Positions 40,220 through 52,622 of a stretch of DNA of 64,000 nt are shown here, in pieces. This DNA comes from a phage. The notes below the pieces were generated by a model. The model made no database searches. It was not told where the DNA came from and saw only the letters and a program-made list of their open reading frames with translations. Within the stretch, counting starts at the first letter, position 1; each line of letters opens with the position of its first letter. The stretch is taken from sequence record PZ445428.1, one strand, 5' to 3'. The position numbers were made by a program, and so were the translations under genes.

Positions 40220-40249
40220 ATACTTATAAATTTGAGAGAGGAAGCAAAT

Positions 40250-41314
40250 ATGATTAAGACTGGTCTAGTAATTGGTAAATTCGCACCATTAACTCGTGGT
40301 CATATCAACCTTATTAATACTGCGGCGACAATGTGTGAGCGCGTTATCGTTGTAGTTAGCCACGACAATCGTTGGCTGGATAAGCAAAACTCTAGGGATC
40401 AAGAAGTCCTACAGTTGAAGAATCGTTTACGATGGCTTGAGCAGACTTATGCAGATATTGAGCATGTGGAAATCCACGATCTTATCGAAGATGATATTCC
40501 TGAGTACCCTAATGGATGGGAAGCATATACCAAGATACTCCAGGAGTGTTATGGTATGTATCCTGAAATCACTATCTTTTCTAGTGAAATTGGGTATGAT
40601 GCGGAGTACAAAAAGTATCTGCCAAACTTCGGCCATTATATTGTAGACTCGGAACGCACTCGTGTACCAATCTCTGCTACTATGATTCGTGAGAATCTGA
40701 TGAAGTATTGGGAGTTCCTGCCTAGCATAGTTCGTAAAGACTATGTTCGCAAGGTAGTTGTTATCGGTACTGAAAGCTCTGGCAAGACAACTTTAACAAA
40801 GTATCTTGCGAAGTTATATAATACTTCATGGGTTGAAGAGTATGGTCGTACATACTGTGAAGTTGACTTAGTAGGCAACGAAAGCCTACTGACTAGCGAC
40901 GACTACACGAAGATTGCATTTAGGCACAAAGAGCTAGAGTTTGAAGCAGAATGTACTGCAAATAAGATCATGTTTGTGGATACCAATGCTTTCATTACTG
41001 AGTTCTACCATAGACTCTACGAACATCGTAAGAATCCTGTGGTTACGGCTATTGCGAAAGAAGAACATTACGATTTAGTTATTGTTCTAGCACCTACTGT
41101 GAAGTGGGTAGATGATGGTTTACGTATTAACTCAGATCGTTCTATTACTTCAGAACTATTCGAGCAGATGAAGGAGGAGTTCCCTAACCAATTCCCAGAG
41201 GGACGCACTGTTTATATCGACTCACCGGACTACAAAGTTCGTATGGACGAAGCTGTAAATGCTGTAGACTGGTTAATTCATTATGTTGACGCGGGAGCTA
41301 TCCAATATGACTAA
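40250..41314 (+). CDS. nadR: bifunctional NMN adenylyltransferase / ribosylnicotinamide kinase (NadR-like, no HTH)
   Basis: GKFAPLTRGHINLI, NRLRWL, YPNGWEAY, ISATMIRENLMKYWEFLP and kinase P-loop VVVIGTESSGKTTL align along E. coli NadR. Confidence 0.85.
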   Translation: MIKTGLVIGKFAPLTRGHINLINTAATMCERVIVVVSHDNRWLDKQNSRDQEVLQLKNRLRWLEQTYADIEHVEIHDLIEDDIPEYPNGWEAYTKILQECYGMYPEITIFSSEIGYDAEYKKYLPNFGHYIVDSERTRVPISATMIRENLMKYWEFLPSIVRKDYVRKVVVIGTESSGKTTLTKYLAKLYNTSWVEEYGRTYCEVDLVGNESLLTSDDYTKIAFRHKELEFEAECTANKIMFVDTNAFITEFYHRLYEHRKNPVVTAIAKEEHYDLVIVLAPTVKWVDDGLRINSDRSITSELFEQMKEEFPNQFPEGRTVYIDSPDYKVRMDEAVNAVDWLIHYVDAGAIQYD

Positions 41315-41984
41315 TTATCTTGTAAATGACTTTAAAAACTGGAAACCTCTGGAATATCTGTGGCTGTTCATTGCAGTGGCCTTCATTAGTTTGGCTAACT
41401 ATAATGGTACAGCACTAGATTGGGCAACAGCAATCACCAACGTTGTTTGTGTTATTCTGGTTGCAAAGGGGCGTGTTTCTAACTATGTCTGGGGTTTGGT
41501 AGGTGTTCTGACCTACGGAATTACAGCTCTAAATGCTGATCTTTATGGTAACGCAGCGCTAAACCTGTTGTACTACGTCCCTATGCAGTTCTACGGAATG
41601 TACTTGTGGCATAAAAATAAGCCAAGTAATCTGCCGGATGTTCCAACTAAAGTTCTGACAAAAGCTCAAGCTTTGCTGACTCTAGGGATTTTAGCAGTAG
41701 CAACATTAGGTTATGGTAGTTTCCTTGCTACTACGGCTGATCCATTCCCAATGTTAGACGCATTTACCGCGGTTGGCAGTGTGATTGCTATGTGGCTTAT
41801 GGTTAAGCAGTATGCTGAACAGTGGCTGATCTGGATTGCCATTAACTTTGGTACTGTGTACATCTGGCTTGTAACTGCCCAATCTACGGGTGCATCTTAC
41901 GCAATCCTGGCAATGTGGCTGGTATTCTTAGGTAACTCTATTATGGGAGCCTATAAAGGCTACTTTGTAAGAGTTAACAAGTAA
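41307..41984 (+). CDS. pnuC: nicotinamide riboside transporter PnuC
   Basis: Multi-TM protein; DAFTAVGSVIAMWLMVKQYAEQWLIWIAINFGTVYIWL matches the PnuC conserved core. Confidence 0.8.
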   Translation: MTNYLVNDFKNWKPLEYLWLFIAVAFISLANYNGTALDWATAITNVVCVILVAKGRVSNYVWGLVGVLTYGITALNADLYGNAALNLLYYVPMQFYGMYLWHKNKPSNLPDVPTKVLTKAQALLTLGILAVATLGYGSFLATTADPFPMLDAFTAVGSVIAMWLMVKQYAEQWLIWIAINFGTVYIWLVTAQSTGASYAILAMWLVFLGNSIMGAYKGYFVRVNK

Positions 41985-42014: not shown

Positions 42015-42033
42015 TTATACAGAAAATTTCACT

Positions 42034-42075: not shown

Positions 42076-42169
42076 GGAAGATTAACCCTAAAGGTAAGGG
42101 AGTTGTTTGCTAAACAACCAGTAGCTGTGGAGACACGGTGTATCAGTTCGAGTCTGGTATCTTCCTCCA
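42076..42169 (+). tRNA. tRNA-Ser (GCT)
   Basis: Acceptor GGAAGAT/ATCTTCC, anticodon loop TTGCTAA, long variable arm, T-arm ATCAG-TTCGAGT-CTGGT, CCA. Confidence 0.8.
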
Positions 42170-42176
42170 AATTCAT

Positions 42177-42254
42177 GGTTCCTTAGCTCAATCAGGTTAG
42201 AGCATTCCCCTCATAAGGGACAGGTTCTCGGATCATACCCGAGAGGAGCCACCA
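42177..42254 (+). tRNA. tRNA with CAT anticodon (Met or Ile2)
   Basis: Acceptor GGTTCCT/AGGAGCC, D-arm GCTC...GAGC, loop CTCATAA, atypical T-loop ATCATAC, CCA. Confidence 0.65.
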
Positions 42255-42271
42255 ATTAACTAGGAGACTTT

Positions 42272-42460
42272 ATGTCTAAATTCCAAGAACTAATGAGAGA
42301 GTTGGGTGAGCATCGCTGCAAGGATTGTTATGGGTCTGGAGAGCAAAACGATGCAGAGCCTGGAGATACTCGATTCAATAAGTGGACTTGTCCTACCTGC
42401 GAAGGTACAGGTATCAACCCTCTTTACACTATTTCTATCTACGTGGGAATTGCTAAATAA
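42272..42460 (+). CDS. zinc-ribbon small protein
   Basis: CKDCYGSG...CPTCEGTG; 62 aa. Confidence 0.45.
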   Translation: MSKFQELMRELGEHRCKDCYGSGEQNDAEPGDTRFNKWTCPTCEGTGINPLYTISIYVGIAK

Positions 42461-42798
42461 TGGATATTTTTACTACTCCAGCAGTCAACCTTTTAGGTGT
42501 AGGTCTGTTCCAAGCTACCATCTATCGTACTGATGATTCTACTGATGTGGTAATGTTCATCGTACCTGAATTCTTCCTAGAAAAGTTCTTTGAAGAGTTT
42601 GAGCAGTTCCGTGAAGAACATAATGCTCACTCCGATATGGAAGATCTAGCAGCTATGTTCCCTGCAGTTTACGGCTATATCTTTGAAAGTAATGGTCTGG
42701 ATCTTAATAAATCTGAGCTGGTCGAACTTAATTGGGGAATTAGTTTTGAAGTTGGCTCTCCATTCCCCCGATACTTCCAGGGTTTAGAGATCCGCTAA
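42460..42798 (+). CDS. hypothetical protein
   Basis: 112-aa ORF. Confidence 0.5.
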   Translation: MDIFTTPAVNLLGVGLFQATIYRTDDSTDVVMFIVPEFFLEKFFEEFEQFREEHNAHSDMEDLAAMFPAVYGYIFESNGLDLNKSELVELNWGISFEVGSPFPRYFQGLEIR

Positions 42799-42806
42799 GA
42801 TTACAT

Positions 42807-42883
42807 GGGGGTGTAATCGAATTGGCATAGGTACTGGACTTAAAATTCAGGTTTTGTGGGTTCGAATCCCACCACCCCTACCA
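42807..42883 (+). tRNA. tRNA with TAA anticodon (Leu by anticodon, short variable arm)
   Basis: Acceptor GGGGGTG/CACCCCT, loop CTTAAAA, T-arm GTGGG-TTCGAAT-CCCAC, CCA. Confidence 0.6.
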
Positions 42884-42900
42884 AATAAAAGGAAACTGAT

Positions 42901-43068
42901 ATGTATCAGAGACCGTCACCACCAGCTCGAAGATCAAGAGAAACTCTTTTGATGGAGTTGGCGAAAAACTTCAAGGCTAAACTTGAAGACGATAATTTTA
43001 CTACAGATGAAGATATTGACTTCATTTGCAAACTATTAAAAATGAAATTGGAGAAAAAACATGGCTAA
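42901..43068 (+). CDS. hypothetical small protein (55 aa, not in ORF track)
   Basis: ATG after AAAGGAAA; MYQRPSPPARRSRETLL... Confidence 0.35.
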   Translation: MYQRPSPPARRSRETLLMELAKNFKAKLEDDNFTTDEDIDFICKLLKMKLEKKHG

Positions 43069-43267
43069 TCCAGAAGTAGTTACACAGCGTTTGCTGATTA
43101 AAGGTGTAGTAGCTGAAGCAGGTCTTACCGAAGCTGTTGCAGATTTTCAGGCACAGTTCACAGCTATTCTCACCCAAGCTAAAGAAACTGGTGCGGAGGA
43201 GTATGCTGCTGCAACTCTAGCGCTCACGTTAGCTGGACTTGATCTGGCAGAAGAAGCCGGAGTTTAA
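43061..43267 (+). CDS. hypothetical protein
   Basis: 68-aa ORF. Confidence 0.4.
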   Translation: MANPEVVTQRLLIKGVVAEAGLTEAVADFQAQFTAILTQAKETGAEEYAAATLALTLAGLDLAEEAGV

Positions 43268-43297
43268 CTCCTCCAAGCAGAAATTTTAAAAATGTAC

Positions 43298-43327
43298 TTG
43301 CTTTTTACTTAAGATTTCTGCTATAAT
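43298..43327 (+). promoter_or_regulatory. sigma70 early promoter
   Basis: TTGCTT-18 nt-TATAAT. Confidence 0.55.
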
Positions 43328-43356
43328 AGTTATATAAATTGATGAGAGGAATCAGA

Positions 43357-43632
43357 ATGTCAAAACGTGTTACAGCAACTGGTATTGAAAGCTCAGTATG
43401 TAAATCCTGGGGTGGTTGGGAAGGTGAGATTGAATGGCTTTATTTCTACAATGTAGAACTTCTGCCTGAAATTAAAGCCCACTGTATCGAAGCTGGTATG
43501 TCTCCTGATGCTAAAGCAGATATCGAAATTACTATGACTAAACTAGAAGGTCGTGTAATTACTGTTAGTGATGAAGGTGAAGAGGTCTTCGAACTTCCAT
43601 TCACCTTGAAAGTCACTCCTTCGTTTGATTAA
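43357..43632 (+). CDS. hypothetical protein
   Basis: Start moved to ATG after GAGAGGAATCAGA. Confidence 0.5.
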   Translation: MSKRVTATGIESSVCKSWGGWEGEIEWLYFYNVELLPEIKAHCIEAGMSPDAKADIEITMTKLEGRVITVSDEGEEVFELPFTLKVTPSFD

Positions 43633-43640
43633 CTGATACA

Positions 43641-43679
43641 GCACTGAGCAAGTTCTTTAAAATTTGACTTGCTCAGTGC
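43641..43679 (+). terminator. 12-bp perfect inverted repeat overlapping the next promoter -35
   Basis: GCACTGAGCAAG...CTTGCTCAGTGC; the 3' arm contains the TTGCTC -35 element. Confidence 0.45.
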
Positions 43680-43698
43680 CTTAAAACTTGATATAATA
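43669..43698 (+). promoter_or_regulatory. sigma70 promoter driving a small RNA and tRNAs
   Basis: TTGCTCagtgccttaaaacttgaTATAAT. Confidence 0.55.
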
Positions 43699-43721
43699 GT
43701 TATCTAATTTGGAAAACATAT

Positions 43722-43820
43722 CTGAATGAGAAGTAACTAAGCGAGTTGCTTTGAGGGGTAAGGTCAGGATAGCCTGAAATATTCCACCTTGAGTTTAACC
43801 GACTTACTTTTCATTCAAAT
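43722..43820 (+). ncRNA. candidate about 100-nt structured RNA upstream of tRNA-Tyr
   Basis: Terminal stem GAATGAGAAGTAA...TTACTTTTCATTC enclosing about 75 nt; no ORF. Confidence 0.3.
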
Positions 43821-43902
43821 ATGTTGGATTAGTATCGTAGAGGTAGCGAAGCAGACTGTAAATCTGCCGACTCGGAAGGGTCTCGGGTGGTTCGACTCCA
43901 TC
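43812..43902 (+). tRNA. tRNA-Tyr (GTA)
   Basis: Acceptor GTTGGAT/ATCCAAC, anticodon arm GCAGA-CTGTAAA-TCTGC, long variable arm, CCA. Confidence 0.75.
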
Positions 43903-43921
43903 ATCCAACACCAAATTTAAT

Positions 43922-43996
43922 GCACCTATCGTCTATCGGTTAGGACATCAGGTTTTCAACCTGAGAAGCTCGGTTCGATTCCGTGTGGGTGTACCA
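43922..43996 (+). tRNA. tRNA-Glu (TTC)
   Basis: Acceptor GCACCTA/TGGGTGT, anticodon arm TCAGG-TTTTCAA-CCTGA, CCA. Confidence 0.7.
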
Positions 43997-44003
43997 AATT
44001 AAT

Positions 44004-44080
44004 GTTCTGCTAGACAAACAGGTAAAGTCCCTACCCTTTCAAGGTAGGGTTTGCGGGTTCGATCCCCGCACAGAACGCCA
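44004..44080 (+). tRNA. tRNA with TTC anticodon (second Glu-type)
   Basis: Anticodon arm CTACC-CTTTCAA-GGTAG, T-arm GCGGG-TTCGATC-CCCGC, CCA. Confidence 0.6.
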
Positions 44081-44088
44081 TATTCTGC

Positions 44089-44165
44089 ATTCCTAGAGTG
44101 TTACTGGACAGCATGTCGGTCTCCAAAACCGTACGGTCTAGGTTCGAGTCCTAGTAGGTTTGCCA
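44089..44165 (+). tRNA. tRNA-Trp (CCA), acceptor stem with U-U mismatches
   Basis: Anticodon loop CTCCAAA, T-arm CTAGG-TTCGAGT-CCTAG, CCA. Confidence 0.55.
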
Positions 44166-44171
44166 ATATTT

Positions 44172-44246
44172 GCACCTTTAGCTGAGATGGATTAGCGCTT
44201 GCCTGAAGAGCTTGAGAGGTTGGATCGTTACCAACGGGGTGCACCA
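44172..44246 (+). tRNA. tRNA-Phe (GAA)
   Basis: Acceptor GCACCTT/GGGGTGC, D-arm GCTG...TAGC, loop CTGAAGA, CCA. Confidence 0.6.
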
Positions 44247-44263
44247 ATTTGAAGGAGATGCTG

Positions 44264-44536
44264 ATGCATCCTGAAAACTTCTTTATATACTGTACTAGTC
44301 CTTTGCTTAAACGCCGGATTAATAAAGTATATCACTACAGAGCTAGTCAACAGCCTTATATTTATGATTCTAGTGGAGATCACATTCCACTTGAGCAACT
44401 AGGGACTGATTATATGGTTTTGAAGCACTTTAATGAGGCAAAGATCTCAAGCGTTCATAACCGACAAAACTCTAAAACGTGGTGGTATAAGAAGCGTAAG
44501 AAAGGCATCAAATTTCTGAAAAATGTAGTTGCTTAA
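44264..44536 (+). CDS. hypothetical protein
   Basis: Start moved to ATG 6 nt after AAGGAG; the track start is TTG. Confidence 0.45.
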   Translation: MHPENFFIYCTSPLLKRRINKVYHYRASQQPYIYDSSGDHIPLEQLGTDYMVLKHFNEAKISSVHNRQNSKTWWYKKRKKGIKFLKNVVA

Positions 44537-44585
44537 ATCCTTAAAGTTCTGTATAATTATTACATAAATTGAACTGGAGAACTAG

Positions 44586-44774
44586 ATGAAAGCACCTAAA
44601 CCGAAATTAGTTAAGTTCGACTGCTGTGACACTGAAATCTTATTTACTAAGTTTGGTGAATTTAAGATGTGTGAATGTGGAACATGTGGTTACGATCATG
44701 GTGATGGATATTATTGCAGAACCCTCGGGCCTTCTGAACTAATCCACTTCTCATGGCCGGAAAGTAAAGAATAA
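44586..44774 (+). CDS. Cys-rich small protein
   Basis: FDCCDTE...CECGTCGYDHGDGYYC; 62 aa. Confidence 0.45.
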   Translation: MKAPKPKLVKFDCCDTEILFTKFGEFKMCECGTCGYDHGDGYYCRTLGPSELIHFSWPESKE

Positions 44775-44776
44775 TA

Positions 44777-44852
44777 CGACCGTTGGCTGAATGGCTTAGG
44801 CGGGGGCCTGCAAAACCTCCTTATGTGAGTTCGAATCTCATGCGGTCGTCCA
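44777..44852 (+). tRNA. tRNA-Cys (GCA)
   Basis: Acceptor CGACCGT/GCGGTCG, loop CTGCAAA, T-arm GTGAG-TTCGAAT-CTCAT, CCA. Confidence 0.65.
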
Positions 44853-44859
44853 AATTTAT

Positions 44860-44942
44860 GGGTCGTTAGCCAAGCGGTTTGGCGGTGGACTGTTAATCCA
44901 TGTCGAAAGACAACGTAGGTTCGAATCCTGCACGGCCCGCCA
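44860..44942 (+). tRNA. tRNA with GTT anticodon (Asn) and extended variable arm
   Basis: Anticodon arm GTGGA-CTGTTAA-TCCAT, extra arm GTCGAAAGAC, T-arm GTAGG-TTCGAAT-CCTGC, CCA. Confidence 0.6.
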
Positions 44943-44970
44943 TTTTTCACTAAAAACTGAGGAAATAGAT

Positions 44971-45156
44971 ATGACAACTCATGCAATTGCTCGACTAGAA
45001 GCTGATCGCGATAGTATTAAGAACAATATTAAAGTTCGTGATCAAATCATTAAGGTTTTAAAGGCAGAACTGCTTGAAGAACTTCAACATCAAGTAGATC
45101 GTCGTGAGTCTTTAAAAGAAGTCGAGGAAGCTCTGTCTAAACTCAAAGCTGAATAA
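44971..45156 (+). CDS. hypothetical coiled-coil protein
   Basis: 61-aa ORF. Confidence 0.4.
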   Translation: MTTHAIARLEADRDSIKNNIKVRDQIIKVLKAELLEELQHQVDRRESLKEVEEALSKLKAE

Positions 45157-45165
45157 ACAAATTAT

Positions 45166-45242
45166 GCGATCGGGGCTGGCTTGGTAATGGTACTCCCCTG
45201 TCACGGGAGAGAATGTGGGTTCGAATCCCATCGGTCGCGCCA
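45166..45242 (+). tRNA. tRNA-Asp (GTC)
   Basis: Acceptor GCGATCG/CGGTCGC, anticodon arm CTCCC-CTGTCAC-GGGAG, CCA. Confidence 0.8.
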
Positions 45243-45248
45243 AATTAT

Positions 45249-45324
45249 ACATCCATAGCTCAATGGTTAGAGCTACCGCCTCTTAAGCGGAGGGTTCTAG
45301 GTTCAAGTCCTAGTGGGTGTACCA
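45249..45324 (+). tRNA. tRNA-Lys (CTT)
   Basis: Acceptor ACATCCA/TGGGTGT, D-arm GCTC...GAGC, loop CTCTTAA, T-arm CTAGG-TTCAAGT-CCTAG, CCA. Confidence 0.65.
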
Positions 45325-45329
45325 AATAC

Positions 45330-45668
45330 TGGGGTCTTAGCTAATCGGTTAAGCGTCATGGATAGCGGTGAATTCCGGCCTATGAAGGGAGTAACACGTA
45401 GTCTCCCAGACTCCACCAAATTTCAGTGCAGAACACGGAGCTAGCAATTCGGAAGTGCTGACGCGCGATAAGCTGCCTATGTACTTGCAAAGCGGACGTG
45501 TCCTAGACTCGGACTCTTGCACTGAAACCAATTAAACATTCTAGCGTGGTGGAGAGGGGACACCAGCTTGCCGAGGGTAGAAGCTCGTTCGATTCGAGTG
45601 AAAGAATGGTTCTCGTAAATCCGCACAAGTGATAGTAGGTTCAAGTCCTGCCTAGATTGACTTATTAT
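45330..45668 (+). ncRNA. cluster of tRNA-like / structured RNA elements, non-canonical
   Basis: Acceptor-like stems with encoded CCA (GGGGTCT...AGACTCCACCA; TTCAGTG...CACTGAAACCA) and T-arm-like motifs, but no canonical cloverleaf by hand folding. Confidence 0.35.
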
Positions 45669-45742
45669 GCGTCCATAGTTAAAAGGTATAATTTCTGGTT
45701 GCCAACCAGATGTTGAGAGTTCGATTCTCTCTGGCCGCACCA
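45669..45742 (+). tRNA. tRNA-Gly (GCC)
   Basis: Anticodon arm TCTGG-TTGCCAA-CCAGA, T-arm GAGAG-TTCGATT-CTCTC, CCA. Confidence 0.75.
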
Positions 45743-46050
45743 AATTTAGGTTTATGCTTCCTAGAGAACGTACTCCTAAATAAACAAGGCGATGAGTTTC
45801 CGGCCGGTTCTAGTCGCTGAAAATCCTCCCGACCAGGTAGGTGTAGGTAAACGAAAGTTTACTTATTAAGTAAGTCCGACACATCGGCGGGTGTGTTCTA
45901 GTATTTAAAGAAGGTCTCGCAAACTTTCTCGCTAGCATGAGTTCATAGCTCGGTGACTTACCTAATAAGTAAATTTATTAAAAATGTAATTGCTATTTAG
46001 CTTAATTCTCTGTATAATATATTTTATAAAGTGATGAGAAGGAAAGCAAA

Positions 46051-46209
46051 GTGAAATTAAAAATTGCAGATGTACTTATGTGTACTTGGGTAATTCCAAT
46101 CATAATTGTTGGTTTTAACGCAGATATACTTTCCACAGCGTGGAAGATTGTAGGGCTAAGTACAGGGTTCACAATGCTAGGGTTAAGCATGTTGTGGACG
46201 AAAAACTAA
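46051..46209 (+). CDS. hypothetical small hydrophobic peptide (GTG start)
   Basis: 52 codons after promoter and GAGAAGGAAAG; not in ORF track. Confidence 0.3.
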   Translation: MKLKIADVLMCTWVIPIIIVGFNADILSTAWKIVGLSTGFTMLGLSMLWTKN

Positions 46210-46213
46210 TATT

Positions 46214-46290
46214 CTCCGATTAGCTCAATTGGCTAGAGTACACCGTTTGGGGTGGTGGGGTTGAAGGTTCGAGTCCTTCATTGGAGACCA
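46214..46290 (+). tRNA. tRNA-Pro (TGG)
   Basis: Acceptor CTCCGAT/ATTGGAG, anticodon arm CACCG-TTTGGGG-TGGTG, T-arm GAAGG-TTCGAGT-CCTTC, CCA. Confidence 0.8.
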
Positions 46291-46305
46291 AATAAGAGGT
46301 TAATA

Positions 46306-46458
46306 ATGCGTCATTTAAATAGGCAAAAAACAAAAGCACCTAAAAGGTTTAAGACTTGGTGCGGTTGTGATAGAGAACTCGTTTCTCTAGGAGAGAAATG
46401 TTCTGTTTGTGGTGTACGCTTTGTTAAGTTCAAACAAAGATTTAAATTTGCGAGTTAG
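46306..46458 (+). CDS. zinc-ribbon small protein
   Basis: 50 aa, CGCDRE...CSVCG; its 3' end overlaps the 5' end of the next tRNA. Confidence 0.35.
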   Translation: MRHLNRQKTKAPKRFKTWCGCDRELVSLGEKCSVCGVRFVKFKQRFKFAS

Positions 46459-46526
46459 ATCTCTGGTAGAGATCACTAGTCTCATAAGCTAGTAAGAGGT
46501 CGGTTCGATTCCGACACTCGCATCCA
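46449..46526 (+). tRNA. tRNA with CAT anticodon (Met or Ile2)
   Basis: Acceptor TGCGAGT/ACTCGCA, D-arm GATC...GATC, anticodon arm CTAGT-CTCATAA-GCTAG, CCA. Confidence 0.75.
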
Positions 46527-46537
46527 AAAAGTATTAA

Positions 46538-46615
46538 GGGTTGCTAGCTCAACTGGTTTAGAGCACTGGTCTTTTAAACCATAGGTTACAGGTTCGAGTC
46601 CTGTGCAACCCACCA
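46538..46615 (+). tRNA. tRNA-Lys (TTT)
   Basis: Acceptor GGGTTGC/GCAACCC, loop CTTTTAA, T-arm ACAGG-TTCGAGT-CCTGT, CCA. Confidence 0.75.
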
Positions 46616-46619
46616 AATT

Positions 46620-46693
46620 GCTCGGTTAGTTTAATGGGAGAACCCCGTCTTTACACGGCGGTTGCGATAGTTCGATTCTATCACCGAGTACCA
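46620..46693 (+). tRNA. tRNA-Val (TAC)
   Basis: Anticodon arm CCGTC-TTTACAC-GGCGG, T-arm GATAG-TTCGATT-CTATC, CCA. Confidence 0.7.
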
Positions 46694-46717
46694 CTTAACT
46701 AAAATAAGGAATTGCAA

Positions 46718-47077
46718 ATGCAATTATCATCTAAAGTTCAAGGTTTCTTCACACATGCAACAGCAGAATTTGCTATTAGCAAGGGTTGGGACTTTGAGCA
46801 AGAACTTTCTGAGTTCTATAAAGATATAGATATGAATACACCATACATGGCCTTAGCTTCTGGACAAGAGTTCTCAGAAGGTGATCTTTTCAAGGCAAGT
46901 CAAGGCGAGGTAACGCCTGGTTTTGCCGCTTTTTGGAGTGGCTTCACAATTAAAGAAGAAGCTCCAGATGATGATGTATTTATGCAAAGCATGCACTCTG
47001 GGAGTTCTGATATGTTATTCGTTAAAGATGTACGACATATCCAAGAAGTGGTAAAAACGTATTTGCAAAATGCTTAA
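46718..47077 (+). CDS. hypothetical protein
   Basis: Start moved to ATG 7 nt after TAAGGA. Confidence 0.5.
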   Translation: MQLSSKVQGFFTHATAEFAISKGWDFEQELSEFYKDIDMNTPYMALASGQEFSEGDLFKASQGEVTPGFAAFWSGFTIKEEAPDDDVFMQSMHSGSSDMLFVKDVRHIQEVVKTYLQNA

Positions 47078-47331
47078 TTTCTTGTTATAATATTTATATA
47101 AATTGATGGGGAGAAATCCTCATCAAAGTTCACTAAGGTATTAGCTCGACCTAGGACTGGCTGCCACCAAGCACGATCCCTACGACTCGGGAGAAGTTCT
47201 AGATTAGTCCACTAGATTCAGCGGCAACTGAATAGTGTATCGGGTTTGTGAAGAGCGGGTATCCAAGCCTGGCTAATGGCACTGGGTATTACGCACACCG
47301 AGCTAATAGCCTTAGTAAACTTGAAGAATTT

Positions 47332-47406
47332 GGGCGAATAGTGTCAGCGGGAGCACACCAGACTTGCAATCTGGTAGGGAGGGTTCGAGTCCCTCTTTGT
47401 CCACCA
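47332..47406 (+). tRNA. tRNA-Ala (TGC)
   Basis: Acceptor GGGCGAA/TTTGTCC, anticodon arm CCAGA-CTTGCAA-TCTGG, T-arm GAGGG-TTCGAGT-CCCTC, CCA. Confidence 0.75.
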
Positions 47407-47412
47407 AATTTT

Positions 47413-47488
47413 GGGGTCATAGGTTATTTGGTTAAACTTACTGCCTTGCAAGCAGTAGAACTCAGTTCAATTCTGAGTGACTCCACCA
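47413..47488 (+). tRNA. tRNA with TGC anticodon (second Ala-type)
   Basis: Acceptor GGGGTCA/TGACTCC, anticodon arm ACTGC-CTTGCAA-GCAGT, T-arm CTCAG-TTCAATT-CTGAG, CCA. Confidence 0.6.
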
Positions 47489-47507
47489 AACAAATTAAGG
47501 AAATAAT

Positions 47508-47726
47508 ATGGTATTCTTAGCAGCCTCTGTAGTTCTTGCATCTTTAGCGTTAGCTATCTATTTTAGAACTGCTAAAGATTTATCTAAAGAAAAGAAAACT
47601 TTCTTTACTGATTACTCTTGGGGTGCTCCATACGCTATCAATTCTATCAGTCTAGAAGCTATGTTGATAATGGTATTCAGTGGTATAGGTTCTATCGTTG
47701 CTGGATTACTTTTTATTTCTAACTAA
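47508..47726 (+). CDS. hypothetical small membrane protein
   Basis: 72 aa, two hydrophobic segments; AAGGAAA upstream. Confidence 0.45.
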   Translation: MVFLAASVVLASLALAIYFRTAKDLSKEKKTFFTDYSWGAPYAINSISLEAMLIMVFSGIGSIVAGLLFISN

Positions 47727-47733
47727 ACAAAAT

Positions 47734-47814
47734 GGGGATGTGGCGAAATTGGCAGACGCGCTAGATTTAGGTTCTAGTCTTCGGGTGTGGGTTCGAGTCC
47801 CTCCATCCCTACCA
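47734..47814 (+). tRNA. tRNA-Leu (TAG)
   Basis: Acceptor GGGGATG/CATCCCT, anticodon arm CTAGA-TTTAGGT-TCTAG, extended variable arm, CCA. Confidence 0.7.
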
Positions 47815-47834
47815 TTTTAAAATAGGATTAATTA

Positions 47835-47999
47835 ATGTTAAAGATGCCAGTAAAACATATTTGGTTAGCTAGAAATAGGGCTACTAATGAATTTGTCTTT
47901 ATTGATACAGGAATGACATATGATCAACGAATATATGATCTTCTGTATTCCGTGTCTGCTGAAGAAGTACACAAATTAATTCTAAAAGATGCAACATAA
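47835..47999 (+). CDS. hypothetical small protein (54 aa, not in ORF track)
   Basis: ATG after TAGGA; the minus-strand track ORFs here overlap tRNAs and are rejected. Confidence 0.3.
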   Translation: MLKMPVKHIWLARNRATNEFVFIDTGMTYDQRIYDLLYSVSAEEVHKLILKDAT

Positions 48000-48001
48000 T
48001 T

Positions 48002-48094
48002 GGAAGAGCAAATCGACTTGGTGACGAAAACCGCTTGGAAAGTGGCTGACTTGTGAAAGCAGGCTTGAGAGTTCGAATCTCTCTTCTTCCGCCA
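48002..48094 (+). tRNA. class II tRNA, probably Ser (GGA)
   Basis: Acceptor GGAAGAG/TTCTTCC, candidate loop TTGGAAA, long variable arm, T-arm GAGAG-TTCGAAT-CTCTC, CCA; anticodon arm is imperfect. Confidence 0.5.
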
Positions 48095-48101
48095 AACAAT
48101 T

Positions 48102-48191
48102 GGAAGTACGGGCGTAGTGGTATGCAACTAGTCTTGAAAACTAGCCCGCTGTAGCGATATGGTGATGGTTCGACTCCATGTGCTTCCGCCA
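48102..48191 (+). tRNA. tRNA-Ser (TGA)
   Basis: Acceptor GGAAGTA/TGCTTCC, anticodon arm CTAGT-CTTGAAA-ACTAG, long variable arm, CCA. Confidence 0.7.
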
Positions 48192-48196
48192 AATCT

Positions 48197-48327
48197 TGGA
48201 ATATGCCGGAATTGGTAGACGGGACTGCCGAATAGGTTTACTAGGAACATCCACTCCTAGAAATATACCTTAAAAGCGGTTGAGTTAAATGGTCTAACTC
48301 GTGAAGGTTCAAGTCCTTCTATTCCTT
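48197..48327 (+). ncRNA. tRNA-like element, about 131 nt, non-canonical
   Basis: Perfect T-arm GAAGG-TTCAAGT-CCTTC and acceptor-like TGGAATA/TATTCCT, but no CCA and no canonical anticodon arm. Confidence 0.35.
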
Positions 48328-48434
48328 GATACATCAATGGCTCAAAGAGTAACGGTGCACCTTTCTAGAGAATTTCCTGGGCGAGAATCCAGGTGTAATC
48401 AACTAGTCGTTAGTGTGATGAGTTTCGGAGAGCC

Positions 48435-48581
48435 GCCACAATTGAAGATCATTGTCTGTTTGAGTCTACCATTTAGGGTCGTTACTTGTAGCGCCTATCT
48501 GCTAGGTCTAATCACTAGGTAAAGGCATGCAAGCTTCTAGTGTAGAGAGTTCGCTACTCCTCGATGGTTTTCAATTGTGGC
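48435..48581 (+). ncRNA. candidate structured RNA closed by a 12-bp long-range stem
   Basis: GCCACAATTGAA (48435-48446) pairs perfectly with TTCAATTGTGGC (48570-48581); the 3' arm overlaps the tRNA-His 5' end. Confidence 0.3.
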
Positions 48582-48653
48582 TATATCATAATTGGTTAAT
48601 GATCCTGATTGTGAATCAGGCCTATGTGGATTCGAGTTCCACTAGCCACCCCA
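48577..48653 (+). tRNA. tRNA-His (GTG)
   Basis: Acceptor GTGGCTA/TAGCCAC, D-arm TCAT...ATGA, anticodon arm CCTGA-TTGTGAA-TCAGG, CCA. Confidence 0.8.
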
Positions 48654-48659
48654 AATATT

Positions 48660-48734
48660 GCGTCCTTATTTCAACGGAAAGAATGTAAAGCTACGAACTT
48701 TACGATCGGGGTTCGATTCCCTGAGGATGCACCA
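48660..48734 (+). tRNA. tRNA-Arg (ACG)
   Basis: Acceptor GCGTCCT/AGGATGC, anticodon arm TAAAG-CTACGAA-CTTTA, T-arm CGGGG-TTCGATT-CCCTG, CCA. Confidence 0.8.
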
Positions 48735-48758
48735 ATTAACTTAAACAGGAAAATAATA

Positions 48759-48959
48759 ATGGCTGATTTCTGTAAAGAATGCTCTATCGATATGTGGGGC
48801 AAAGATACACAAGATCTTTCTGGTCTTATCACTGAAGCTGAAGTTAAAGAAGGCTATGGTGCTGTAGTAATCTGCGAAGGTTGTGGTATTATCCGTGTTG
48901 ATCATGAAGGCAAACGCCTTGAAGAACCTGAGCCAATCGCAACGGTTCCTGTAGAGTAA
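48759..48959 (+). CDS. zinc-ribbon small protein
   Basis: MADFCKECSID...CEGCG; start moved to ATG after AGGAAA. Confidence 0.45.
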   Translation: MADFCKECSIDMWGKDTQDLSGLITEAEVKEGYGAVVICEGCGIIRVDHEGKRLEEPEPIATVPVE

Positions 48960-48967
48960 CAAATTAT

Positions 48968-49043
48968 TGGGATGTAGATCAATTGGCAGATCGTCGGCCT
49001 CTGACTCCGAAGGTTCCTGGTTCGATCCCAGGCATCCCAGCCA
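48968..49043 (+). tRNA. tRNA-Gln (CTG)
   Basis: Acceptor TGGGATG/CATCCCA, D-arm GATC...GATC, loop CTCTGAC, T-arm CCTGG-TTCGATC-CCAGG, CCA. Confidence 0.7.
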
Positions 49044-49050
49044 AACAATT

Positions 49051-49125
49051 GGAGAATAGTGTAGTGGTTCGCACAACGGCCTTTGACTCCGTTAGTGGTA
49101 GGTTCAATTCCTCCTTCTCCTGCCA
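49051..49125 (+). tRNA. tRNA-Gln (TTG)
   Basis: Acceptor GGAGAAT/TTCTCCT, loop CTTTGAC, T-loop TTCAATT, CCA. Confidence 0.65.
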
Positions 49126-49131
49126 ATTTAT

Positions 49132-49206
49132 GCGTGATTAGTTCAGTGGCTAGAATAACTGGCTTCCAACCAGTAGACACGAGTTCGACTCTCGTATCCC
49201 GCACCA
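49132..49206 (+). tRNA. tRNA-Gly (TCC)
   Basis: Anticodon arm ACTGG-CTTCCAA-CCAGT, T-arm ACGAG-TTCGACT-CTCGT, CCA. Confidence 0.75.
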
Positions 49207-49220
49207 AATAAGGAAACGTT

Positions 49221-49442
49221 ATGCACGTTTTTGAGTTTCGTAATAAAAGCCCCAATAGACGCGTTTTGATTATTGGTGAAACATATCGAGCTTACGAGCA
49301 AGAAGATGGTTCAGTTTTACTAAACGATGAAAAGCAAGGTTATAGCTTTCATCCAGAAGAAACGTATGAAGAGTTTCGTACTAAGTTTCTTTTACCAGAC
49401 TGGCTAGCAGTAGCCGAGCAACGAGAATCCGAAGATGGCTGA
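49221..49442 (+). CDS. hypothetical protein
   Basis: 73-aa ORF after AAGGAAA. Confidence 0.45.
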   Translation: MHVFEFRNKSPNRRVLIIGETYRAYEQEDGSVLLNDEKQGYSFHPEETYEEFRTKFLLPDWLAVAEQRESEDG

Positions 49443-49599
49443 TAACCTGAAACTAAAGGTTGACAAACAGAAGAAACGTGTAGAGATTGAGCTTGGTGAC
49501 GAACGCCTAGCACTATCCTTCGAGTTTCTTCAGCAGTTGGCGATGACAGTAATGTCTGATAAGTCTCCTGTATTTGAAAAAGAAATCCCGTTGAAATGA
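49435..49599 (+). CDS. hypothetical small protein (54 aa, not in ORF track)
   Basis: ATG overlapping the upstream stop; MADNLKLKVDKQKK... Confidence 0.35.
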   Translation: MADNLKLKVDKQKKRVEIELGDERLALSFEFLQQLAMTVMSDKSPVFEKEIPLK

Positions 49600-49609
49600 C
49601 GGGTTTATT

Positions 49610-49684
49610 GCTCCTAAAGCATTGCTGGCGATGCAGTTGCCTTGTAAGCATCTGAACCGGGTTCGATTCCTGGTGGGAGCACCA
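49610..49684 (+). tRNA. tRNA-Thr (TGT)
   Basis: Acceptor GCTCCTA/TGGGAGC, D-arm GCAT...ATGC, loop CTTGTAA, T-arm CCGGG-TTCGATT-CCTGG, CCA. Confidence 0.75.
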
Positions 49685-49758
49685 AATTTAAAAATTCATT
49701 TGCCTTCTCTCTTATTTCTTGTTATAATATTTATATAAATTAATGAGAGGGAAACCAA

Positions 49759-50052
49759 ATGAAACGTTATCTTTCTGTCGTGTTCCAAACTGGTGGTCAG
49801 CGTTATACCTACGAATTTCCAGAGTCTTGGAAAATCAAAGAAGGTGATCAGGTTGTTGTACTGACACCGCGTGAAGGCTTCAAAGTGGTTACGGTTAAAC
49901 AAGTATTTCCTAAAGATCACGAACCATCTAAATCTATTAATTATAAGATGATTCATGGTCTGGTACGAAAAGTACCACGGACGGAAGTTGAAGTAGATAA
50001 AGATGGTGAAGCTAAATACCAGTATACTTCTTACCTAGACGAGATGCGATAA
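49759..50052 (+). CDS. hypothetical protein
   Basis: 97-aa ORF after promoter and GAGAGGGAAACC. Confidence 0.5.
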   Translation: MKRYLSVVFQTGGQRYTYEFPESWKIKEGDQVVVLTPREGFKVVTVKQVFPKDHEPSKSINYKMIHGLVRKVPRTEVEVDKDGEAKYQYTSYLDEMR

Positions 50053-50276
50053 TGAGAATTACCTTTACTGAGAAGATAATATGTAATGGGATTATGATCA
50101 TTACAGCGTGGGAAGGTAAACAATGGTGCAGTATAACGGGTCTTAAAGCAGAAGATCAAACACCAGAAAACATTCTCAAAATAAAACAAAACATGGCAAA
50201 ACATGCTAAACGTCCTGGTGCTCCTAGGAATGGCATACGTTTTGCAGCAAAATGCTCCGATAGTTCAAACGGTTAG
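50052..50276 (+). CDS. hypothetical protein; 3' end overlaps tRNA-Ile
   Basis: 74-aa ORF; last 7 codons overlap the tRNA 5' half. Confidence 0.4.
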   Translation: MRITFTEKIICNGIMIITAWEGKQWCSITGLKAEDQTPENILKIKQNMAKHAKRPGAPRNGIRFAAKCSDSSNG

Positions 50277-50329
50277 AACAGGCGACCGATAATCGTCAAA
50301 TCTTGGTTCGATCCCAAGTTGGAGTACCA
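50254..50329 (+). tRNA. tRNA-Ile (GAT)
   Basis: Acceptor GCTCCGA/TTGGAGT, D-arm GTTC...GAAC, anticodon arm GGCGA-CCGATAA-TCGTC, T-arm CTTGG-TTCGATC-CCAAG, CCA. Confidence 0.75.
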
Positions 50330-50373
50330 AAACAACGGAGAGTCACTACCGTAAGTGTGAAGTTGAAAAATAT

Positions 50374-50449
50374 AGTTAGTTGGCAGATCGGTTATGCACC
50401 TCCTTCATACGGAGCGATCAGAGTGGTTCGATTCCACTACTAACTACCA
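50374..50449 (+). tRNA. tRNA with CAT anticodon (third CAT tRNA)
   Basis: Acceptor AGTTAGT/ACTAACT, loop TTCATAC, T-arm AGTGG-TTCGATT-CCACT, CCA. Confidence 0.7.
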
Positions 50450-50818
50450 AACAGAAGATCAGGCCATAGTGCCAGATCCTGCTGAGAAGAGAGTCCACAT
50501 TCTATAAATGGACGGGCGTGACAGCAGGAAGTAGACTGCAACTCGATGCTATCTAAGAGTATAAATGTAGAAGCTAAGACTTTAGATAGTCATTGTCTTA
50601 GCGTGAGTAATCACGTAGTTGCAACAGACCAGGAAGATCGCAACGTTAAAATCAAAGCTCCTGTGCTTTTCTTCTTAATCGAGACCATCAATCTCACCGG
50701 AATGCTAGCACCCCAACAGTAGCTAGTGATTAAGAGAAAAGCAAACCTGCCTTCCAGTTTTTATCTTGCTTCTGGGTTATCAAAAAGCTGAGCCAATTTC
50801 TAACATCAGGGAGATCTA

Positions 50819-51187
50819 ATGAAAGCATATCAAAGTCTTAAATCCGGCGTAATTAACCTTGTTCATGACAATCAGATCATTCAGCTATACTCTAAAGACG
50901 GCGAACTTAAACAGAAAGTTCTAGTTGAAGATCTAGAAGGTATCACACCTCACTTTGATCCTGAAGCCTTCCGCATCGTGGATGTTAAAGTAGTTCCTCA
51001 AGTCGAGGGTGGTCAACACCTAAATGTCAACGTATTAAGTCGTGATCAGCTTTTGGATGCTCAGAAACATCCTGAAAAATATCCTCAGTTGACCATTCGT
51101 GTCTCTGGTTATGCTGTTCGATTTAATGCACTGACGCGTGAACAACAGAACGACGTTATTAGTCGTACATTTACTCAGGCGATCTAA
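50819..51187 (+). CDS. grcA: autonomous glycyl-radical cofactor (GrcA/YfiD-like)
   Basis: [12 protein letters not shown]...[37 protein letters not shown] is near-identical in pattern to E. coli GrcA, including the RVSGY glycyl-radical motif. Confidence 0.8.
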
Positions 51188-51268
51188 TGGGGTTTGGATA
51201 CGATTTCTCCCAGCTACGCAAGGTAGTCGAGCAAACTCCATTTATCTCCGAAGTTTTAGGAGAACTTA

Positions 51269-51568
51269 GTGGACAGAGCATTAAGACGTCACCACCGTCA
51301 ACGTGTCAAGAACAATCGCAAGAAGTATTGGACAGTCTTCCCTCATGAAGAAAGTCCTAAACGGTTAGGTATTATTACTACCACTCCTTGTATTTGCTCT
51401 TGCTGGATGTGTGGCAACCCACGCAAATACTATAAAAATAGTAAAGCAGCAATGAAAATCTCGGAGATTAAAAAGATGGATTCAGGATATAATGAAATCA
51501 CGTTTACAGGTGGTATCTCTGATGAGTTCGATGGTTTTGTATCACAAGACGTTATCGAAATTATCTAA
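51269..51568 (+). CDS. minimal radical-SAM activase, NrdG-like
   Basis: GTG start; FPHEESPKRLGIITTTPCICSCWMCGNP carries a CxxxCxxC cluster and aligns with the NrdG N-terminus; TFTGGISDEF resembles the SGGDP region. Confidence 0.5.
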   Translation: MDRALRRHHRQRVKNNRKKYWTVFPHEESPKRLGIITTTPCICSCWMCGNPRKYYKNSKAAMKISEIKKMDSGYNEITFTGGISDEFDGFVSQDVIEII

Positions 51569-51634
51569 TTAAATAACAAACCCCGGCTATTGAATAAGTA
51601 GTTGGGGTTTTCTTATATACACAGGATTTTCAAA

Positions 51635-51820
51635 ATGAAAATTTTTAAAGTGAACTACCGTGGACTATGGTTAGGTGGTACAGCTATTGTTGTTGCGGAA
51701 ACTGCGGAAAAAGCAATCGAACTGGCTAGAAACCATAGATCTTCTATAGAGTTTGAAGGTGTGACAGTAGAAGAACTCCCTAGCAGTGGGGTAGTATACA
51801 ACGATAACGGGAATTACTGA
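51635..51820 (+). CDS. hypothetical protein
   Basis: 61 aa from an internal Met. Confidence 0.4.
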   Translation: MKIFKVNYRGLWLGGTAIVVAETAEKAIELARNHRSSIEFEGVTVEELPSSGVVYNDNGNY

Positions 51821-51877
51821 TGTTATATTTTAAAGTTCGACCACATTAAGTTAATTCACAGACTTAATGGAGAAAAT

Positions 51878-52273
51878 ATGAGCCGTACTTATCGCAAACA
51901 ATCTGGAAATCATTACTGGCGTGACAAACATCGTTGCACTTATAACTTCCACAGCACTAATGTGCGTATTCCCTATGTTTACACAGATCGTGAAGGTAAA
52001 CAGTGGAAATACTACAAAGTTCGCTCTAATGAAGCATGGGCTATGTCTTGGGATGAAGTTGATGCAGAAATTCAGGAAGGCATCCTGAATAACGAAAAGA
52101 AAGATGGTCACTGGTGGGATTCTATCAACCAGAGTGTTAAATGGCACTCTAACAAAATGGTTCGACAGGGAAATCGCCGTGAGTTACATCGTGTAATGAA
52201 AGATCCAGAAAATTACGACTACAATCGAGATCACGACCTTCGTAAGAAAGGCATCTGGTGGATCTACGACTAA
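51878..52273 (+). CDS. hypothetical protein
   Basis: 131-aa ORF, Trp/His-rich. Confidence 0.5.
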   Translation: MSRTYRKQSGNHYWRDKHRCTYNFHSTNVRIPYVYTDREGKQWKYYKVRSNEAWAMSWDEVDAEIQEGILNNEKKDGHWWDSINQSVKWHSNKMVRQGNRRELHRVMKDPENYDYNRDHDLRKKGIWWIYD

Positions 52274-52349
52274 TTTCGTAAATAATTCATTTGCTAAAAC
52301 CCTCTCCTTTTGATATAATATTTATATAAATTGATGAGAGGGCTTTGAA

Positions 52350-52622
52350 ATGAAAGAAGCAGAAATTAATGAAATGGCTAGGGTTTTCGTAGTTTCCTAT
52401 ATGCAAGGTAGCTGCAATAGTCTTTTCGATTCAGCAGTAGTATTTCAGGAAGAATTAGCTGAGAAAGGTATACATATGGAAGATACTGAAATTGAGGATC
52501 TTCTGATGGAAGCTGCAAGTAGTGCAGAAGTATTCTTGTGTGATAATTGTGGTTGGTGGTGTCCTGAGCATGACCGTTCTGAAGAAGGCTCTTACTGTTC
52601 TGACTGTGAGGGAGAAGAATAA
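52350..52622 (+). CDS. acidic protein with C-terminal zinc ribbon
   Basis: CDNCGWWCPEH...CSDCEG; 90 aa. Confidence 0.5.
   Translation: MKEAEINEMARVFVVSYMQGSCNSLFDSAVVFQEELAEKGIHMEDTEIEDLLMEAASSAEVFLCDNCGWWCPEHDRSEEGSYCSDCEGEE

Follow-up and report, generated by a model that had tools for sequence, protein, structure and literature searches.

Conserved cysteine-rich mini-genes and tRNA-overlapping reading frames in the tRNA gene region of Escherichia phage TrudiGerster

The tRNA gene region of TrudiGerster

The window analysed in this study is a 64,000-nucleotide (nt) stretch of phage DNA (sequence record PZ445428.1), and the subject of the work is a group of small, mostly cysteine-rich open reading frames (ORFs) encoded in and just beyond its tRNA gene region, together with the overlaps between two of these ORFs and the tRNA genes that follow them. 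In megablast searches, the 11-kb stretch of DNA under study was 100% identical to Escherichia phage TrudiGerster (Bas27; NC_105114.1; Demerecviridae, Epseptimavirus); other Epseptimavirus and T5-like phages matched with 87-88% identity across ~80-85% of the query. Six small ORFs, here designated ORF1 to ORF6, had been picked out in an earlier note on this DNA, and all six were found in place. The central features are listed below (positions are those of the window; aa, amino acids; dN/dS, ratio of nonsynonymous to synonymous substitution rates; phrog numbers denote PHROG families, with the E value of the match).

42076-50449, + strand: T5-type tRNA gene region, with small ORFs in the gaps between tRNAs
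42272-42460, + strand: ORF1, 62 aa, one predicted zinc centre from two CxxCxGxG motifs (phrog_6060, 1e-27; dN/dS 0.17)
44586-44774, + strand: ORF2, 62 aa, conserved CC...CxC (phrog_7042, 2e-30; dN/dS 0.17)
46291-46448, + strand: 158-nt insert between tRNA-Pro and tRNA(CAT), without a stop codon of its own (spacer comparison of six phages)
46294-46299, + strand: Shine-Dalgarno sequence of ORF3, AAGAGG
46306-46458, + strand: ORF3, 50 aa, unannotated, predicted 4-Cys zinc knuckle (W-C-x-C-D ... K-C-x-x-C-G) (conservation; dN/dS 0.09)
46449-46526, + strand: tRNA(CAT), a diverged allele overlapped by ORF3 over its first 10 nt (ARAGORN; Rfam)
48759-48959, + strand: ORF4, 66 aa, C5xxC8 and C39xxC42, signature MADFCxxCS...VICEGCG (phrog_2210; dN/dS 0.04)
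50052-50276, + strand: ORF6, 74 aa, not a zinc protein (phrog_9814, 3e-37; dN/dS 0.11)
50254-50329, + strand: tRNA-Ile(GAT), overlapped by ORF6 (ARAGORN; Rfam)
52350-52622, + strand: ORF5, 90 aa, C-terminal CxxCxxxC..H...CxxC, outside the tRNA array (phrog_2855; dN/dS 0.08)

ARAGORN predicted 29 tRNAs in the window, 27 of them at 42076-50449 and all on the + strand. Rfam returned 27 tRNAs in the 42-50.5 kb interval and no RNA family besides tRNAs between 41.9 and 53 kb; when tRNAs annotated only in the record are included, the total is up to 30. Two tRNA-Ser genes of the record (48002-48094 and 48102-48191) received no ARAGORN call and fell below the Rfam gathering score, and the tRNA-His at 48577 was not picked up by Rfam. 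Between the tRNAs lie 16 annotated coding sequences (CDSs), plus the unannotated ORF3 and ORF6. The description of the mini-proteins as interleaved with tRNAs was correct for all but ORF5, which starts 1.9 kb past the last tRNA.

The region is syntenic, gene by gene, with those of T5, BF23, Eps7, rutana, and phiR2-01, and likewise with that of SP15. With this synteny and nucleotide similarity, and with more than 20 co-oriented tRNAs and interspersed small ORFs, it is of the T5 type. As far as its sequence tells, the region is an ordinary T5-type tRNA and anti-defence island. Gene order, tRNAs, and interleaved small ORFs are as in T5 (NC_005859.1, T5.054-T5.076) and BF23 (NC_042564.1, "ORF trn 2.x"), where ORF2 corresponds to trn 2.7*, ORF4 to T5.062 and trn 2.15, ORF5 to T5.053, and ORF6 to trn 2.19.1; ORFs that run into tRNAs and homologs of anti-Ec83 ORFs are also common to these regions. 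TrudiGerster differs from T5 and BF23 in that it has ORF1 in place of hegA, a unique insert bearing ORF3, and an ORF6 that has lost its stop codon. It also has no Rad homolog anywhere in the window, and the flank of its island (40232-41984) carries NadR-like and PnuC-like genes at the position that is occupied by the primase-like T5.076 in T5 and by Rad (ORF75) in PhiSP15.

Small cysteine-rich proteins

All six ORFs bore the marks of genuine protein-coding genes. Relatives found by tblastn in phage records numbered 296 for ORF1, 296 for ORF2, 11 for ORF3, 836 for ORF4, 526 for ORF5, and 278 for ORF6, and PHROG matches for ORF1, ORF2, ORF4, ORF5, and ORF6 had E values of 1e-24 to 1e-37. Five of the six are preceded by a Shine-Dalgarno sequence; the exception is ORF6, which starts on the stop codon of the upstream ORF (TAATG). 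Nei-Gojobori dN/dS ratios, calculated against closer relatives, ranged from 0.04 to 0.17 (values listed above); judged by these ratios, all six ORFs are under purifying selection. In the record NC_105114.1, four of the five Cys-rich ORFs are annotated as hypothetical proteins, and 46306-46458 (ORF3) and 50052-50276 (ORF6) are missing. A proteomics paper on phiR2-01 reports 90 phage proteins; a literature search for a ribosome-profiling study of T5 found none.

The cysteine content of the encoded proteins was bimodal, with 4-6 Cys in five proteins and 0-3 in all other CDSs. At least four Cys in at least two close pairs were present in 5 of the 25 small annotated or conserved CDSs at 42-53 kb, compared with none of 47 non-gene ORFs of at least 40 aa from the same DNA, which served as the null set (Fisher p = 0.004). 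When a gene set approximated by a greedy procedure was used, 5 of 26 entries in the region were of this kind as against 1 of 34 in the rest of the window (p = 0.049), and this one exception is likely to be a spurious antisense ORF. The Cys pattern is thus beyond chance. The earlier note had described paired CxxC motifs in at least five ORFs, a description that holds strictly for ORF1, ORF4, and ORF5 and, in the form of a CxC plus a CxxC, for ORF3. It is too generous for ORF2, since the homologs of that protein conserve only CC...CxC. In ORF1, ORF3, ORF4, and ORF5, four or more metal-ligand Cys are kept across divergent homologs, and by this conserved-Cys criterion the four proteins are predicted zinc ribbons or knuckles of the 4-Cys kind. 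As in generic 4-Cys ribbons and knuckles, each family has two unchanging Cys pairs with 10-30 residues between them, and AlphaFold2 (AF2) models show short beta-hairpins; however, ORF3, ORF4, and ORF5 had no significant sequence or fold match to the named zinc-ribbon families.

ORF3 was examined by an exhaustive phmmer search of 1.84 billion representatives, which returned 71 matches at E <= 0.001, about 65 of them proteins of 45-92 aa that aligned over nearly their full length. The family motif is N-R-x-K-x3-P-[KR]-x4-5-W-C-x(1,2)-C-D-x2-[LIV]-V-x3-G-x-K-C-x2-C-G-x-R, with a tail rich in Lys and Arg after it; the residues W, C, C, D, C, and C are invariant, the first Cys pair being C-x(1,2)-C. 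The protein carries a net charge of +11 over 50 aa, and its homologs are annotated as CDSs in other phages. No model in Pfam, PHROG, or NCBIfam matched ORF3 (the NCBIfam scan gave noise only), its profile found among PDB sequences only the generic CxxC knuckles of C2H2 and RING fingers, and its AF2 model (predicted local distance difference test score, pLDDT, 75.5) had no structural match. A word-indexed protein search with ORF3 alone as the query found nothing, and a pattern scan of IMG/VR with a 5-sequence ORF3 alignment yielded no confirmed relatives. Because Rfam found only tRNAs in this part of the window, ORF3 is not a known RNA gene either. By its sequence, ORF3 appears to be the unannotated gene of an undescribed, very basic 4-Cys mini-protein family of about 65 clusters, a new finding if a minor one.

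Members of the ORF3 family were found in the tRNA islands of T5-like phages, in those of Stephanstirmvirinae (loci L003-L005 and L015), and in that of a 61-kb metagenomic contig (L020), and among ordinary small genes in six other lineages, a distribution suggestive of a non-obligate link to tRNAs. On L020, a three-gene cassette that includes the ORF3-family gene lies between tRNA-Leu and tRNA-Ile (1722-2510), and its last gene (2173-2457) runs 22 nt into tRNA-Ile (2436-2510), a T5-like read-in within an unrelated tRNA island. In Stephanstirmvirinae, the ORF3-family genes lie just downstream of a NAD-salvage gene (NAPRTase); in one such phage, Klebsiella phage KP13-26, the ORF3 homolog is preceded at a distance of 123 nt by a tRNA of the amber-suppressor type, which has the anticodon CUA and is annotated "tRNA-Pyl" (L005, 1300-1374).

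ORF4 is the most widespread gene of the set, with invariant Cys and a net charge of -9. Its AF2 model had a pLDDT of 88.6, and no PDB match was found by sequence or fold. No tRNAs lie near its relatives in Felixounavirus, Vequintavirus, and a Stenotrophomonas phage, and a link between ORF4 and tRNAs was rejected on these contexts. The label "RNase P subunit RPR2", which one source (JGI) attaches to an ORF4 homolog, was found to be unsupported, as 0/34 family members matched Pfam Rpr2 at E <= 1. ORF5, with a net charge of -19, contains C64xxC67 and C83xxC86 in addition to C70 and H73.

The two CxxCxGxG motifs of ORF1, a type shared with DnaJ and the lambda Q zinc finger, are conserved in phiR2-01 and Eps7. 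Matches of ORF1 to DnaJ_CXXCXGXG (PF00684) and Anti-TRAP (PF15777) were below the Pfam gathering threshold (24.8 versus a cut-off of 32.7 bits and 25 versus 32, respectively), and the DnaJ cysteine-rich domain has four motifs versus two in ORF1. Residues 14-56 of ORF1 aligned weakly to residues 79-123 of lambda Q (PDB 4mo1; E = 0.85), and the match of the Q-like phrog_127 (253 positions) was confined to positions 162-209. The two motifs have a Q-like spacing of 18-20 residues, which is why other annotators have labelled such proteins "anti-termination protein Q-like". ORF1 was rejected as a full lambda Q antiterminator, however, being 62 aa long versus ~200 aa and without the DNA-binding and RNA polymerase-binding regions. 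Its slot, between the tRNA(CAT) at 42177 and tRNA-Leu, was examined by comparing 42255-42806 of the window with our comparison loci L011, L014, and L023. It holds ORF1 and a 112-aa ORF in TrudiGerster, and ORF1 is also present in phiR2-01 and Eps7; in other phages it holds the homing endonuclease gene hegA (T5 and BF23) or the 62-aa ORF74 (PhiSP15), and in rutana the ORF1 homolog has been cut down to 24 aa. Although ORF74 has the slot and length of ORF1, its translation is unrelated, and it was ruled out as a homolog. That the content of this slot differs among phages lends support to the picture of interchangeable cassettes developed below.

The Cys pattern of ORF2 itself is CC...CxCxxC, with one CxxC, and its match to Pfam DUF7695 was below threshold. 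ORF2 ends at its own TAA in TrudiGerster (2 nt before tRNA-Cys) and has its own stop in phiR2-01 also, whereas in BF23, Eps7, and rutana its homologs overlap tRNA-Cys by 14 nt. A further Cys-cluster gene was found beyond the tRNA array.

51269-51568, + strand: sixth Cys-cluster mini-protein, 99 aa, GTG start (phrog_4499, 8e-36, residues 1-87)

This ORF has a good Shine-Dalgarno sequence, a basic N-terminus, and an invariant P-C-x-C-S-C-x-M-C, and it is conserved over its full length across seven T5-like islands. The record annotates only its C-terminal 53 aa (51407-51568); judged by this conservation, the gene is annotated too short.

Junctions of ORF3 and ORF6 with tRNA genes

The overlaps of ORF3 with tRNA(CAT) (10 nt) and of ORF6 with tRNA-Ile (23 nt) proved to be real. 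In T5, BF23, phiR2-01, rutana, and Eps7, the spacer between tRNA-Pro and tRNA(CAT) is an invariant 6-nt AACAAT, as against 158 nt in TrudiGerster. The insert contains the Shine-Dalgarno sequence and 47 codons of ORF3, none of them a stop; translation would end at TAG 46456-46458, that is, at U8-A9-G10 of the tRNA. Among ~400 phage records with that tRNA, ORF3 is joined to it only in TrudiGerster. At the DNA level, ORF3 is closest (70% identity) to genes of three T5-like phages of Klebsiella, where the homolog has its own stop and occupies a different slot, 14 nt after tRNA-Leu and 43 nt before tRNA-Pro; in Stephanstirmvirinae, the homolog stops 12-29 nt ahead of tRNA-Arg. ORF6 ends at TAG 50274-50276 in the D-loop of tRNA-Ile. 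Its homologs in BF23, Eps7, and rutana end at a TAA 1 nt before tRNA-Ile, and alignment of the junctions showed that ~5 nt, including this stop, are deleted in TrudiGerster, so that ORF6 reads on into the tRNA. The conservation check that the earlier note had called for thus came out negative, each of the two overlaps being seen only in TrudiGerster.

In the tRNA(CAT) joined to ORF3, the pair U1:A72 is accompanied by a compensatory A5:U68. The corresponding tRNAs of T5, BF23, phiR2-01, and Eps7 are a single identical allele with a U1-U72 mismatch and G5:C68, annotated in T5 as the initiator tRNA-fMet, and that of rutana is one T-stem base off this allele. No identical copy of the TrudiGerster allele was present in 50,697 phage records (best match, 93.8%), and its divergence may affect initiator identity.

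Overlaps of this kind were found to be routine. In 17 of the window's 29 tRNAs, positions 8-10 read TAG, and an ORF entering such a tRNA in the matching frame therefore terminates there, for an overlap of exactly 10 nt. Among 200 tRNAs from eight T5-like islands, 21 tRNA 5' ends were entered by ORFs of at least 40 aa, with 1-4 read-ins per island, and nine of the 21 overlaps were exactly 10 nt long. Overlaps are already annotated in the records of T5 (T5.057/tRNA-Met, hegD/tRNA-Gln, hegC/tRNA-Ser, and T5.069/tRNA-Asn) and BF23 (trn 2.7*, 2.8, 2.12.1, and 2.20). Because read-ins are so widespread, the two in TrudiGerster are ordinary in both number and length.

ORF3 also resembles the homing-endonuclease genes hegA-E of T5 and segB of T4 (PMC2330249), which are free-standing genes in short inter-tRNA spacers and vary among related phages; the 3' ends of hegC and hegD overlap the next tRNA, as that of ORF3 does. 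It differs from these cassettes in encoding a 50-aa non-nuclease protein, with no endonuclease gene adjacent.

Origin of the overlaps and roles of the small proteins

By analogy with the annotation of T5 and BF23, host RNA polymerase would most likely transcribe the region from several early promoters into precursors that contain both tRNA and mRNA, which would then be cut by RNase P and other tRNA-processing enzymes. The records of T5 and BF23 place the early promoters P11, P13a, P13b, P14a, P14b, and P15a-c within the region, and in TrudiGerster a promoter-like site is located upstream of tRNA-Pro, ORF3, and tRNA(CAT).

45990-46018, + strand: promoter-like site, 10/12 match to the consensus, syntenic with P13a of T5 and BF23 (consensus match only)

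Further 10/12 consensus matches occur at the syntenic positions 42033, 47062, 49700, and 52291.

Taken together, these data indicate that the mini-genes are real and conserved and that the ORF3 and ORF6 overlaps are probably a by-product of tight packing and not a selected device. The proposed sequence of events is as follows. The spacers between tRNAs measure only 5-9 nt, and some gaps would act as slots for small interchangeable cassettes, each with its own ribosome-binding site. With spacers so short, an insertion or small deletion would readily leave an ORF without its own stop, and the resulting read-in would end within 10-24 nt, most often at the conserved U8-A9-G10. ORF3 would have arisen by insertion of a cassette lacking a stop, and ORF6 by the ~5-nt deletion.

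RNase P cleavage at 46449 and 50254 would, given the established action of this enzyme, remove the stops of ORF3 and ORF6 if the precursors are shared. The processed messages would carry no stop codon, so that full-length protein would be made only from precursors translated before processing. The proposal that RNA processing and translation are coupled in these messages stands in this trivial physical sense, as the stops do lie inside the tRNAs. As a conserved or selected mechanism it is not supported, since the ORF6 homologs, and those ORF3 homologs that have a tRNA close by, stop before the tRNA; the removal of the stops would be a tolerated side effect, because the overlaps are not conserved.

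It is conceivable that the overlaps are instead a selected device that couples RNase P processing to mini-protein translation or the reverse, for example by timing output or by letting ribosomes modulate tRNA maturation. This would accommodate the position of the ORF3 and ORF6 stops within tRNAs and the presence of 1-4 overlaps in every T5-like island examined. We nevertheless regard it as unlikely, because both overlaps at issue are specific to TrudiGerster, with homologs elsewhere having their own stops, because overlap lengths are as predicted from where stop triplets fall in the 5' half of a tRNA, and because the ORF2 family switches between overlapping and non-overlapping forms, the tRNA-Cys overlap being absent in TrudiGerster. 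Four observations do weigh against the by-product reading or the picture that goes with it. At least two overlaps are conserved across genera, namely those of the ORF2-type ORF with tRNA-Cys (14 nt; BF23, Eps7, and rutana) and of the trn 2.12.1-type ORF (157 aa) with tRNA-Lys(UUU) (10 nt), and there may be selection for overlap at these two sites. The promoter-like sites, consensus matches only, numbered 30 versus a shuffled expectation of 24.5 +/- 5.4, which is no excess. The ORF3 family is present in tRNA islands of three independent kinds (T5-like, Stephanstirmvirinae, and L020), more than would be expected of a random small gene. Finally, neither of two structural searches found an analog for the predicted proteins.

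A further alternative is that the zinc mini-proteins, ORF3 especially, act on tRNAs or their precursors as RNA chaperones, processing cofactors, or shields against tRNA-cleaving defence nucleases. A role of phage tRNA islands in countering defences that target tRNAs is known, ORF3 is extremely basic, its relatives in T5-like phages and Stephanstirmvirinae lie 12-43 nt from a tRNA and recur in the third island on L020, and one source carries the RPR2 label on an ORF4 homolog, although that label failed the Rpr2 test. However, six of eight metagenomic contexts of the ORF3 family have no adjacent tRNA, ORF4 relatives lack tRNAs in their neighbourhood in three other phage groups, the searches turned up nothing similar to an RNA-binding fold, and the strong acidity of ORF4 and ORF5 is improbable in RNA binders. 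We therefore consider such a role quite improbable. An extended form of the idea, in which the ORF3 family would be an undescribed class of phage RNA/tRNA-binding zinc-knuckle proteins repeatedly recruited to tRNA islands, and in TrudiGerster a minimal stop-less cassette whose expression needs translation ahead of RNase P, with U8-A9-G10 as built-in stop and processing timer, is a speculation to which we give little credence. That 46306-46458 and 50052-50276 are untranslated chance open frames, as their absence from the deposited annotation would imply, agrees with the failure of ORF3 to match PHROG, Pfam, or NCBIfam and with the lack of a clear Shine-Dalgarno sequence at ORF6, but is effectively refuted by conservation: ORF3 has its 71 matches, invariant residues, low dN/dS, strong Shine-Dalgarno sequence, and CDS status elsewhere, and ORF6 has its PHROG match, relatives in 278 records, low dN/dS, and a start that overlaps the upstream stop.

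Returning to the by-product reading, the products of about a fifth to a quarter of the mini-genes would be proteins of 50-100 aa whose fold depends on a 4-Cys metal site. Very small proteins often require metal for folding, and this need, rather than action on tRNAs, is the likely reason for the site. The proteins would most likely be accessory host-takeover or anti-defence factors, although such roles are predicted with low confidence. With similarly low confidence, the strongly basic ORF3 is predicted to be a nucleic-acid binder, the acidic ORF4 and ORF5 may bind proteins or mimic nucleic acid, and ORF1 may be a zinc-finger module of the DnaJ/lambda Q type that stands alone.

An anti-defence setting has been described for related phages. 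Azam et al. (bioRxiv 10.1101/2023.03.15.532788) reported that T5 and PhiSP15 remain viable after deletion of ~8 kb in the tRNA-rich region, which they named the Anti-Defense Island. The island contains Rad (ORF75) and a tRNA-Tyr active against retron Ec78, and the determinants active against retron Ec83 are ORF71 plus ORF72 or ORF72 plus ORF73, the text of that paper being inconsistent on the pair. Both dispensability and anti-defence activity were demonstrated there with the deletion mutants T5n and PhiSP15m, that is, in phages other than TrudiGerster. In addition, neutralization of the PARIS defence system by a T5 tRNA is described in a further paper (PMC11464382). The window has a tRNA-Tyr at 43823, and the following features were identified by sequence homology.

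42901-43068, + strand: homolog of PhiSP15 ORF73
43061-43267, + strand: homolog of PhiSP15 ORF72
43357-43632, + strand: homolog of PhiSP15 ORF71

The T5 "stable RNAs with unknown functions" also have homologs (83-96% identity) in unannotated gaps of the window, none of which is represented in Rfam.

48195-48338: homolog of RNA1
47139-47251: homolog of RNA2H
45537-45661: homolog of RNA2
45875-45926: homolog of RNAIV (partial)
35490-36131: homolog of RNAX

The new items reported here, namely the ORF3 gene and family, its stop-less insertion, and a sixth Cys-cluster gene that had been annotated too short, are minor, and they leave the current understanding of phage biology unchanged. For a BASEL reference phage, one unannotated gene is added and one truncated gene is corrected, and an uncharacterised, very basic zinc-knuckle mini-protein family is defined across diverse phages. 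The result is of use to annotators, who often leave out ORFs that run into tRNAs, ORF3 and ORF6 in the TrudiGerster record being examples. Given the anti-defence factors now known from the T5 tRNA region, it would be reasonable to include the conserved mini-proteins in screens for anti-defence or host-takeover activity. The tRNA overlaps themselves would arise predictably, as a by-product, when genes are packed between tRNAs only 6 nt apart, with tRNA positions 8-10 supplying a ready-made TAG stop.

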